Virus record (IMG/VR): IMGVR_UViG_3300049188_000023
Reading direction: 5' to 3' (one strand)
Origin: a virus
DNA: 43,451 nucleotides
The notes under the pieces: model-generated
What the model was told of the DNA's origin: nothing
Seen by the model: the letters and a program-made list of their open reading frames with translations, nothing else
Database searches by the model: none
Position numbers and translations under genes: made by a program
Shown here: positions 2,100 to 3,266 of the stretch, piece after piece
Numbering within the stretch: the first letter of the stretch is position 1
Layout of the letters: each line of letters begins with the position of its first letter

Positions 2100-3266
2100 G
2101 TGAAGGAGCGGCCAATCCTTTTCTCGGCTCCGATGGTCAGAGCCATCCTGTCCGGCACGAAGACCCAGACACGGCGAGCGATGAGGCCGCAGACCACATC
2201 GGGGCCGCACGACATCGCCACGGTGATCAGCACGCCGGATTCGCTGGCCGCGTTCGTGCGCCAGCGTTGCCACTACGGCCAGCACGGCGACCGGCTGTTG
2301 TGTTACCGTTGCGCGCATGAACTCTCAACTCGTGCTGAAGCCCATCCCGGTGTCACCGAACGACGACTACATGGCGGGGTCGGACGGCCAGATTTACAGC
2401 CGAACGAAGTACGCGGGGTTCGGCCGGAAGGAGCGGGTGGATTGGTACCCGCTGGTCGGCCACAGGGACAAGCGCAAGGGCTACTTGCGGGTGTCGCTCT
2501 GCCACGAGAACAAGAAGGTCACGATGTCGGTGCATCGACTCGTCTGCATGGCCTTCCACGGGTTGCCGCCCAGCAAGAGTGCAGAGACGAGGCACCGAGA
2601 CGGCAACCCGGAGAACAACACCCCGGGGAACCTGTGCTGGGGGACCGCTGCGGAGAACTGGCACGACAAGCGCATTCACGGCACATCAACAGTGGGCGAG
2701 AGACATCCGGCAGCGAAGTTCACCGATCTGGAGCGCGAGCACATTCGCTGGGCGATCAGCAAGGGCCTGTGCAGCCAGCGCCAGGCGGCCCTTGCTCTGG
2801 GTGTGGCGCAGTCGTCGATTCAAGGCATCGTGTCGGCGGGTCGCGCCTCTGGGTAAGGGAAGCCTGGGCCGCACCGCGCGCCTTCGACCACCTACCGCCG
2901 CGACTTATCCCGCCCGACGCGGGGTTCCACTACGCCGCTTCAGAGGCCCTCGGCGGCCTGCGCAGTCGTCCCAGCATCCACATGCCGCGGGCCGCCAGCC
3001 GCATCACGCTTGAGATCACCGGCGTGCGGGTGGAGAGGCTGCAGGACATCAGCGAGGCGGATGCGTTGGCCGAAGGCGTGGTTGAGCACCCCACGCTGAA
3101 GGGTCGAGCCTGCAATATCGACGGCGGGCACATGGTGGCCGGTGGCCCGCGCAACGCCTATGCCTGCCTGTGGAACGAGATCAACGGCCCCGGATCCTGG
3201 GACGCCAACCCTTGGGTCTGGTGCATCGAGTTCAAACGGGTGCCTCAAGGGGAGGTGACGGGATGA
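2100..3266 (+). CDS. Conserved phage protein (ASCH/PUA-like, PMVRAILxGxKTQTRR family) interrupted by a 549-552 nt insertion; the 388-codon frame stays open
   Basis: GTG 2100 with GGAGG 7 nt upstream. The N-terminal part ...YGQHGDRL ends at 2297 and the C-terminal part [10 protein letters not shown]...[12 protein letters not shown] starts at 2847. The in-frame middle is Arg/Gly/Pro junk. Confidence 0.6.
   Translation: [388 protein letters not shown]
2298..2849 (+). mobile_element. Homing-endonuclease gene insertion inside the ASCH-like gene
   Basis: Segment separating the GDRL and LWVREAW halves that are contiguous in the family as I recall it; almost entirely occupied by the HNH ORF in the +1 frame. 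Confidence 0.6.
2317..2856 (+). CDS. HNH homing endonuclease (NUMOD4/HNH_3 type) with C-terminal HTH
   Basis: LKPIP...DYMAGSDGQIYS...GYLRVSL...VHRLVCMAF...RHRDGNPENNTPGNLCWGTAAEN; C-terminal LCSQRQAALALGVAQSSIQGIV helix-turn-helix. Confidence 0.85.
   Translation: MNSQLVLKPIPVSPNDDYMAGSDGQIYSRTKYAGFGRKERVDWYPLVGHRDKRKGYLRVSLCHENKKVTMSVHRLVCMAFHGLPPSKSAETRHRDGNPENNTPGNLCWGTAAENWHDKRIHGTSTVGERHPAAKFTDLEREHIRWAISKGLCSQRQAALALGVAQSSIQGIVSAGRASG

Follow-up and report, generated by a model that had tools for sequence, protein, structure and literature searches.

An HNH homing endonuclease gene overprinted on a stop-free, in-frame insertion in a phage gene of the phrog_874 family

Results

The viral DNA stretch IMGVR_UViG_3300049188_000023 from IMG/VR (43,451 nucleotides (nt), hereafter the window) carries a gene of the phage protein family phrog_874 that contains, within an insertion, an HNH homing endonuclease gene in another reading frame, and the frame of the interrupted gene (here called the host gene) stays open from its start codon to its own stop. 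Comparison with 19 further loci of the same arrangement points to purifying selection against stop codons in the host frame. Our preferred explanation, to which we give a probability of about 0.78, is that ribosomes making the host protein pass through the overprinted endonuclease gene without a break, and that its host-frame product would be tolerated as a linker.

A nested HNH gene in an open host frame

An initial annotation of the window, made from the sequence alone, had proposed that the open reading frame (ORF) starting at GTG 2100 consists of two halves of one family, contiguous in homologues of about 200 amino acids (aa) and separated by a stop-free insertion whose length is a multiple of three, with no start codon at the junction from which the C-terminal half could be re-initiated; each of these statements was borne out (Table 1). 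When aa 1-66 (2100-2297) and aa 250-388 (2847-3263) are joined, they give one continuous match to phrog_874 (residues 1-200, E 5.8e-72) and align with uninterrupted proteins of ~200 aa at ~60% identity over 96-100% of the query, and in the alignment the motif that spans the junction is contiguous in those homologues. The insertion is exactly 3 x 184 nt long and has 0 stops in the host frame. No ATG, GTG or TTG occurs in that frame between GTG 2769 and ATG 2982, so that the C-terminal half has no start at the junction. Membership of the host protein in phrog_874 is clear from these profile and sequence matches, and the family appears weakly ASCH-like: the protein scores 15.8 bits against Pfam ASCH (PF04266; cut-off 21.2), the top Foldseek matches of its predicted structure are ASCH proteins with weak E-values (0.02-0.9), and its homologue in Pseudomonas phage LESphi3 is annotated as an ASCH N4-acetylcytidine (ac4C) amidohydrolase.

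Table 1. Features of the interrupted phrog_874 gene and its nested HNH gene (window coordinates)
Feature	Coordinates	Strand	Remarks
Shine-Dalgarno-like GGAGG	2089..2093	+	6 nt 5' of the host GTG; read from the sequence
Host ORF, GTG start to TGA stop, 388 codons + TGA	2100..3266	+	phage gene of phrog_874, weakly ASCH-like; open across the insertion
N-terminal host half, aa 1-66	2100..2297	+	aligns with uninterrupted homologues
Junction copy 1, G-D-R-L	2286..2297	+	the copy of the repeated motif that agrees with the host consensus
Insertion, 552 nt = 184 codons	2298..2849	+	host frame without stops; Arg/Gly/Pro-rich peptide, predicted to be disordered
HNH_3, I-HmuI-like homing endonuclease ORF, 179 aa	2317..2856	+	+1 frame relative to host; ATG 19 nt into the insertion
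Junction copy 2, G-S-R-L	2838..2849	+	directly before W-V-R-E; overlapped by the last HNH codons
HNH stop TAA	2854..2856	+	made of host codons GTA-AGG (V252-R253) in the conserved L-W-V-R-E strand
C-terminal host half (W-V-R-E-A-W ...) and stop	2850..3266	+	alignment, AlphaFold and motif conservation
Downstream ORF, 79 aa	3263..3502	+	ATG overlaps the host TGA (ATGA, 3263-3266); called as a gene on identical contigs

The nested gene is intact. Its product matches Pfam HNH_3 (39.2 bits, cut-off 24.8), the 'HNH endonuclease' family phrog_59 (9e-33) and, by profile comparison, the homing endonuclease I-HmuI (PDB 1u3e; E 8.7e-11), with the H-x-D-G-N...N-L...N residues aligned; H93, N105 and N114, which are invariant in the clade, align to the catalytic H...N...N of I-HmuI. 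Of the initial description of this ORF as a NUMOD4/HNH_3 endonuclease in the +1 frame, the HNH_3 part stands, and Pfam detects no NUMOD4 in the product. A protein identical to that of the window is encoded on 13 contigs from several samples. The gene fills the element almost entirely, leaving just 19 nt of the insertion uncovered, and its stop codon overlaps codons of the conserved host strand, as it does likewise in three of the other loci (L002, L008 and L010).

The two junctions carry a quasi-duplication (GDRL and GSRL), as had been noticed at the outset. It holds at the protein level; at the nucleotide level the copies are identical at only 6/12 nt, and no flanking direct repeat or target-site duplication was found in the DNA at the junctions of the window. 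Because of this four-codon repeat, the boundaries of the insertion can shift by up to 12 nt. No near-identical empty allele that would pin them down was found, the best uninterrupted matches being 56-61% identical.

Host-frame stop codons are purged

The number of stops to be expected in the host frame was obtained by permuting the synonymous codons within the HNH ORF. For the window alone, such shuffling, which the initial annotation had proposed as a check, gives 3.4 expected stops and a probability of finding none, P(0), of 0.015. Of the 180-codon windows in the other coding-like ORFs of the window, 4.8% are free of stops in the -1 frame, and the ratio of observed to expected stops in these ORFs is 0.87. 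The open frame of the window is, on its own, only moderately unlikely by chance, and the check made on it is suggestive. Both figures lend something to the idea of a recently killed gene, which had been raised at the outset; in this explanation a free-standing homing endonuclease gene would have inactivated the host gene, and the length divisible by three and the open frame would be due to chance at high GC.

The comparison among loci goes far beyond this. With the HNH protein or an alignment of it as query, searches of IMG/VR and of GTDB genomes yielded 19 further distinct loci of the close HNH clade, so that the set consists of the window, 14 loci from IMG/VR (L002, L005, L006, L008, L010-L013, L017, L018, L020, L021, L025 and L026) and five from metagenome-assembled genomes (MAGs; L091-L095). 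The HNH proteins of the 20 loci are 52-81% identical, and identity at four-fold degenerate sites is 33%, which means that these sites are saturated and that, as far as synonymous positions go, each locus can be treated as practically independent of the others. All 20 have 0 stops in the host frame over 164-183 codons, where shuffling predicts 3.4-9.0 stops per locus and ~126 in total; P(0) per locus ranges from 0.015 to <3e-4, and the set includes loci with a GC content at third codon positions (GC3) of 0.45-0.57, for which 6-9 stops are expected. The absence of stops can be traced to individual codons: HNH codons placed before a codon beginning with AA, AG or GA, where a final T would create a host-frame stop, end in T in 0/848 cases, and T makes up 22.7% elsewhere.

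Several controls behave as expected by chance. In the +1 (third) frame of the same loci, and in free-standing HNH relatives of 30-47% identity, the observed stops are close to the expected ones, and no spanning ORF was found over the distant free-standing relatives. The window itself has a second, free-standing HNH_3 gene (5486-5995, + strand, 169 aa), the core of which is 31% identical to the nested HNH, and this gene has 4 stops in its -1 frame. With no stops in 20 loci and normal controls, the open host frame is far beyond what chance or composition would produce, and purifying selection holds it open. The comparison refutes the killed-gene explanation, since the stop-free frame is conserved across 20 loci saturated at synonymous sites, which are not near-identical copies of one another; counting all distinct nested loci, 20/21 have an open host frame, those of intermediate GC3 among them, and we regard a dead gene kept open by accident as highly improbable.

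As a separate observation, a group of free-standing HNH relatives of 42-44% identity (L035-L047) shows partial depletion of -1 stops (1-3 observed and 5-8 expected) with no spanning ORF.

Host halves, junction contexts and internal promoters

In 16 loci the HNH gene lies between recognisable N- and C-terminal halves that belong to the one host family and share a frame. Only the C-terminal half was detected in L011 and L013; L004 has the N-terminal half on a contig that ends before the C-terminal one, and L005, which is degraded, has neither. The C-terminal halves retain the family-conserved motifs (PSIHMPRWASR..., NPWVW) in all loci. The element is found in three junction contexts, all in frame and stop-free: after C.YG..GDRL (window, L002, L092 and L095), before CP(F/Y)..G.RLWVRE (most loci) and before W.PSIHMPRW (L021 and L026). 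The HNH start codon is ATG in 19/20 loci and GTG in L010. Two details of single loci may be recorded here. The N-terminal half of L011 has, at ~2290-2370, an additional CxxC...CxxC zinc-ribbon-like segment with weak Pfam matches (Nop10p, DZR), unlike other members of the family. In L010 (~3520-3530) and L018 (~3005-3015), the TGA of the HNH gene overlaps an in-frame host ATG (ATGA) just 5' of RL(W/Y)VRE, so that in these two loci the C-terminal half could also come from coupled re-initiation.

The quasi-duplication at the junctions proved to be a conserved part of the element, which in many copies is a sigma-70-type promoter that the host frame reads through. The element has a conserved 5' segment with the host-frame reading (I/L)Y-R-L-T-D-D-R-(I/L); in L008, L010, L011, L012 and L026 the same segment forms a near-consensus sigma-70 promoter (TTGACA-16/17-TATnCT) located 40-70 nt 5' of the HNH ATG, and in the promoter-bearing relatives a Shine-Dalgarno sequence often follows before that ATG. 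In L008, the ATG lies 6 nt past the -10 element, a spacing that suggests a leaderless HNH mRNA. The window and L002 have the host-consensus C.YGQ.GDRL at the position of the 5' segment, a decayed copy (RHRVGGSRL) downstream, and no promoter. The likeness between the start of the insertion and the residues that follow the site (GDRL/GSRL in the window, (I/L)YRLTDDR(I/L) against CP(F/Y)G.PGDRL in other loci) is partial, and partly a matter of the promoter. We infer that a host segment of ~10 codons has been duplicated around the HNH gene, and that either copy may be able to serve the fold.

The only broken member of the clade is L009 (2741-3934; equivalent to L027), a locus of low GC (GC3 0.36) whose host frame is interrupted by 23 stops. 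Its N-terminal half terminates at a stop (…GETVSK*), its HNH gene has a promoter (TTGACA-18-TAGTAT) and an AGGAGG Shine-Dalgarno sequence, and its C-terminal half has acquired an ATG of its own (MDKGIVYIKEAW…) that overlaps the HNH stop. Judged from these signals, L009 has the arrangement of a classical gene split by a free-standing homing endonuclease gene. That its C-terminal half has its own start argues that this half is needed as a protein.

Introns, inteins and bypassing

HNH genes of the I-HmuI type are typically intron-encoded, and the likeness between the 5' end of the element and the downstream exon could be taken for the guide pairing of an unorthodox self-splicing intron, either a degenerate group I intron or one of an unfamiliar class; a similar quasi-duplication at the junctions of the ShiLan domain (see Discussion) was noted as intron-like (PMC11855218). 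A search of 1900-3400 for Rfam introns at E<=10 returned neither RF00028 nor any other family, and none was found in the 20 loci at gathering thresholds. The boundary rule of group I introns, U at exon position -1 and G at the intron end, is satisfied by 0/34 of the boundary pairs whose joining gives back the frame and a junction of the family type. The Rfam results and the lack of canonical U/G boundaries rule out a group I or group II intron of the recognised kind, in agreement with the initial annotation, which had also pointed to how little sequence lies outside the ORF (the 19 nt given above). As for an unorthodox intron, splicing would provide no cause for the purging of the expected stops or for a length of 3n, and we hold this explanation to be quite improbable.

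An open, in-frame insertion would suit the needs of an intein, and endonucleases that lie out of frame within inteins have been documented (10.1101/2025.01.02.630785; 10.64898/2026.09.14.751524), so that the host-frame peptide could be imagined as a mini-intein that excises itself. Yet Pfam searches for Hint or intein domains gave nothing for the window product at E<=0.1 and nothing for the host-frame products of 10 other loci at E<=1, the junctions lack the first C/S residue, the terminal H-N and the C/S/T at position +1 and are variable between loci, and disorder is predicted for the host-frame peptide. With no Hint domain in 11 host-frame products and unfit junction residues an intein was rejected, in agreement with what had been concluded from the sequence of the window; we regard a mini-intein with an out-of-frame endonuclease as very improbable.

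Translational bypassing, by a hop like that of gene 60 from GDRL to GSRL, or a pair of frameshifts would draw on the likeness of the codons at the two junctions. The Leu and Arg codons nevertheless differ (CTG and CTC for Leu, CGG and CGC for Arg), no stop follows the take-off site, the gap would be 552 nt as compared with 50 nt in the known case, and a hop has no need of an open frame. Its probability is close to negligible. More generally, the bypass or splicing mechanism that the initial annotation had listed among its options is unneeded and leaves the purging of stops unexplained; the option that gained support from the comparative data is the first on its list, namely that an overprinted homing gene encodes an in-frame loop which the host protein tolerates.

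Structure and expression of the read-through product

In an AlphaFold2 model of the host product, built with an alignment of 48 sequences, both halves are folded (predicted local distance difference test, pLDDT, 70-93) and most of residues 63-246 have a pLDDT <50; past the insertion, the model resumes with the strand R-L-W-V-R (249-253). The hydrophilic character of the linker is simply a result of the frame relationship, and evidence for selection on its hydrophobicity beyond the avoidance of stops was unconvincing (mean z -0.24 and -0.54).

The mechanism that we favour would work as follows. An in-frame element of 3n length would sit in a loop just 5' of the conserved beta-strand R-L-W-V-R-E, with neither an intron nor an intein involved. 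Ribosomes starting at GTG 2100 would read the element in the host frame and produce a 388-aa protein (43 kDa), in which, according to the model, two folded halves would be linked by a 184-aa hydrophilic and disordered segment. The endonuclease, an I-HmuI-like HNH_3 domain with a C-terminal helix-turn-helix (HTH), would be made separately from ATG 2317, and in many relatives its expression would depend on the internal sigma-70-like promoter and the Shine-Dalgarno sequence at the 5' end of the element. Selection at the level of the phage would purge host-frame stop codons, and uninterrupted alleles would presumably be nicked or cut by the HNH enzyme close to the conserved G-D-R-L-W-V-R-E codons, with repair then spreading the element. 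On this view the read-through protein would be functional, and the endonuclease would be active and able to home. The identities of HNH and host proteins are uncorrelated (r = 0.09, a weak test at these distances), the best 80 of at least 587 confirmed relatives in IMG/VR are all uninterrupted, and the contigs that carry the element differ widely in GC. These observations may bear on homing, and none of them is proof of it; the sporadic presence of the element among homologous host genes is what would be looked for in a mobile element.

Some observations weigh against this explanation. In the window, the sequence 5' of the HNH start (ATG 2317) showed neither a Shine-Dalgarno sequence nor a sigma-70 promoter, and our shuffling null leaves out codon-pair bias, which the controls suggest to be small (observed/expected 0.87). 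In L005 (2733-3617; equivalent to L019), there is no recognisable N-terminal half and the C-terminal half is reduced to the last ~25 residues, so that the host gene looks largely deleted, and still the open frame over the HNH gene is kept, where 8.6 stops are expected. The upkeep of the frame could therefore depend on translation as such, through anti-polarity or through coupling to the gene at 3263, and not on the function of the host protein.

Carried to its end, this would mean that the open frame serves ribosome movement only, avoiding Rho-type polarity or allowing coupled translation of the downstream gene, and that the fused host protein is inactive or dispensable. The ATGA overlap of host gene and 79-aa ORF suggests that translation of the latter is coupled to that of the host gene, a coupling that an interruption of the host frame would abolish, and the locus with the degraded host gene and the linker under no selection beyond stop avoidance are likewise compatible with a role for the ribosome alone. 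Against it, N- and C-terminal halves keep their family-invariant residues in all loci while the synonymous sites of the HNH gene are saturated, and the C-terminal half of L009 acquired its own start instead of being lost. We consider it unlikely that the frame is kept open for ribosome movement only, and prefer translation of a host protein that makes use of both halves.

Genomic neighbourhood and public annotation

Downstream of the host gene and the 79-aa ORF, for which no PHROG match was found, lie an excisionase-like ORF (3552-3761) and an integrase gene (3719-4702, minus strand); the host gene belongs to the early or lysogeny genes of a temperate phage. A 418-aa shadow ORF (3683-4939, +) is antisense to the integrase gene and illustrates that long open frames do arise from composition in this window of 64% GC.

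The public gene calls on contigs whose HNH protein is identical to that of the window (L104-L110) comprise the HNH gene, a 94-aa C-terminal fragment that starts at an internal ATG (2982-3266, +) and a 62-aa antisense ORF (2045-2233, -), which is spurious. The 388-aa host gene is absent from them, and the nested arrangement is thus invisible in standard annotation. Among cultured phages, INPHARED has none with the same element, the best HNH identity being below 40%.

Discussion

Homing endonuclease genes are, to our knowledge, usually said to persist within genes only by means of self-splicing introns or inteins. The element described here fits neither, and is probably another member of a type recently described for the ShiLan domain, a hidden, out-of-frame HNH insertion in DNA methylases of mycobacteriophages (Arsenault, Gosselin & Gogarten 2025, PMC11855218; also Pacc40 gp60). 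There, a stop-free in-frame insertion has an HNH gene that starts 18 nt in and stops within the four final bases, the residues with which the insertion begins are like those after the site, no intron or intein signal was found, a loop is predicted and the distribution is sporadic (PMC11855218). Since this architecture was already described in 2025, our finding is less novel than the initial annotation assumed. The likeness is close: the insertion in the window, as those in the 19 other loci, is a stop-free multiple of three, the HNH gene lies in another frame with its ATG 19 nt in and its TAA (2854-2856) at or just past the 3' end of the insertion, no intron or intein can be recognised, and the element occurs sporadically among homologues of the host gene.

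There are also differences. The host gene is a methylase in ShiLan and a weakly ASCH-like gene of phrog_874 here; the ShiLan HNH is flanked by zinc fingers, according to the description in that paper, whereas ours is an I-HmuI-like HNH_3 with an HTH; and ShiLan is known from actinophages, whereas our element comes from MAGs and uncultured phages that vary in GC. Unlike ShiLan, the present element occurs in three junction contexts within one host family, has a promoter and a Shine-Dalgarno sequence in many copies, and has given rise to a split derivative (L009). The ShiLan study was computational and reported the absence of stops without quantifying selection (PMC11855218), while here selection against host-frame stops has been quantified.

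The features shared by both systems, namely the junction duplication, an open frame that appears obligatory and an HNH stop placed within a conserved host strand, could be read in another way, as the marks of a non-canonical excision at the RNA or protein level or of ribosomes passing from one set of repeated junction codons to the other, the read-through product being a precursor or a fail-safe. For the elements of the window and its relatives we think this a long shot.

Other known systems share part of this architecture. In inteins, out-of-frame homing endonucleases have been described for actinophages (EndoVII-like; bioRxiv 10.1101/2025.01.02.630785) and for a cyanobacterial dnaX intein (bioRxiv 10.64898/2026.09.14.751524), and these resemble our element in that the endonuclease is overprinted on a translated sequence that must stay open. 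The difference lies in the fate of that sequence, which inteins splice out; here neither a Hint domain nor splice-junction residues are present. The nested HNH belongs to the same protein family as the nicking homing endonuclease I-HmuI of Bacillus phage SPO1. The gene of I-HmuI is carried by a self-splicing group I intron; no intron was detected around the nested HNH. Genes can also be split by free-standing homing endonuclease genes, as is the case with nrdA of Aeromonas phage Aeh1, split by mobE. Only L009 resembles them, with an N-terminal fragment, an endonuclease gene with promoter and Shine-Dalgarno sequence, and a C-terminal fragment with its own start. The window and the 19 other loci differ from such split genes in that the N-terminal part has no stop and, in most, the C-terminal part has no start; the two parts would be covalently joined through the translated endonuclease region.

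The arrangement found here, like that of ShiLan, would represent a third route by which a homing endonuclease gene can persist within a gene, namely in a frame other than that of the host gene and within a stretch read through during its translation. We know of no earlier quantitative evidence of selection maintaining such a dual-coding stretch, and the comparison of 20 loci, with ~126 stops expected and 0 seen, shows that selection maintains dual coding over ~170-180 codons. It also exposes a blind spot of annotation, as the public calls give the HNH gene and a 94-aa fragment and no host gene. For the host family, the insertion site would mark a place where the ASCH-like fold tolerates a loop of 184 aa, or even, as in L009, outright splitting. 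What had been a curiosity of one group of phages thereby becomes a testable, and probably general, strategy for the persistence of homing endonuclease genes within the genes that carry them.

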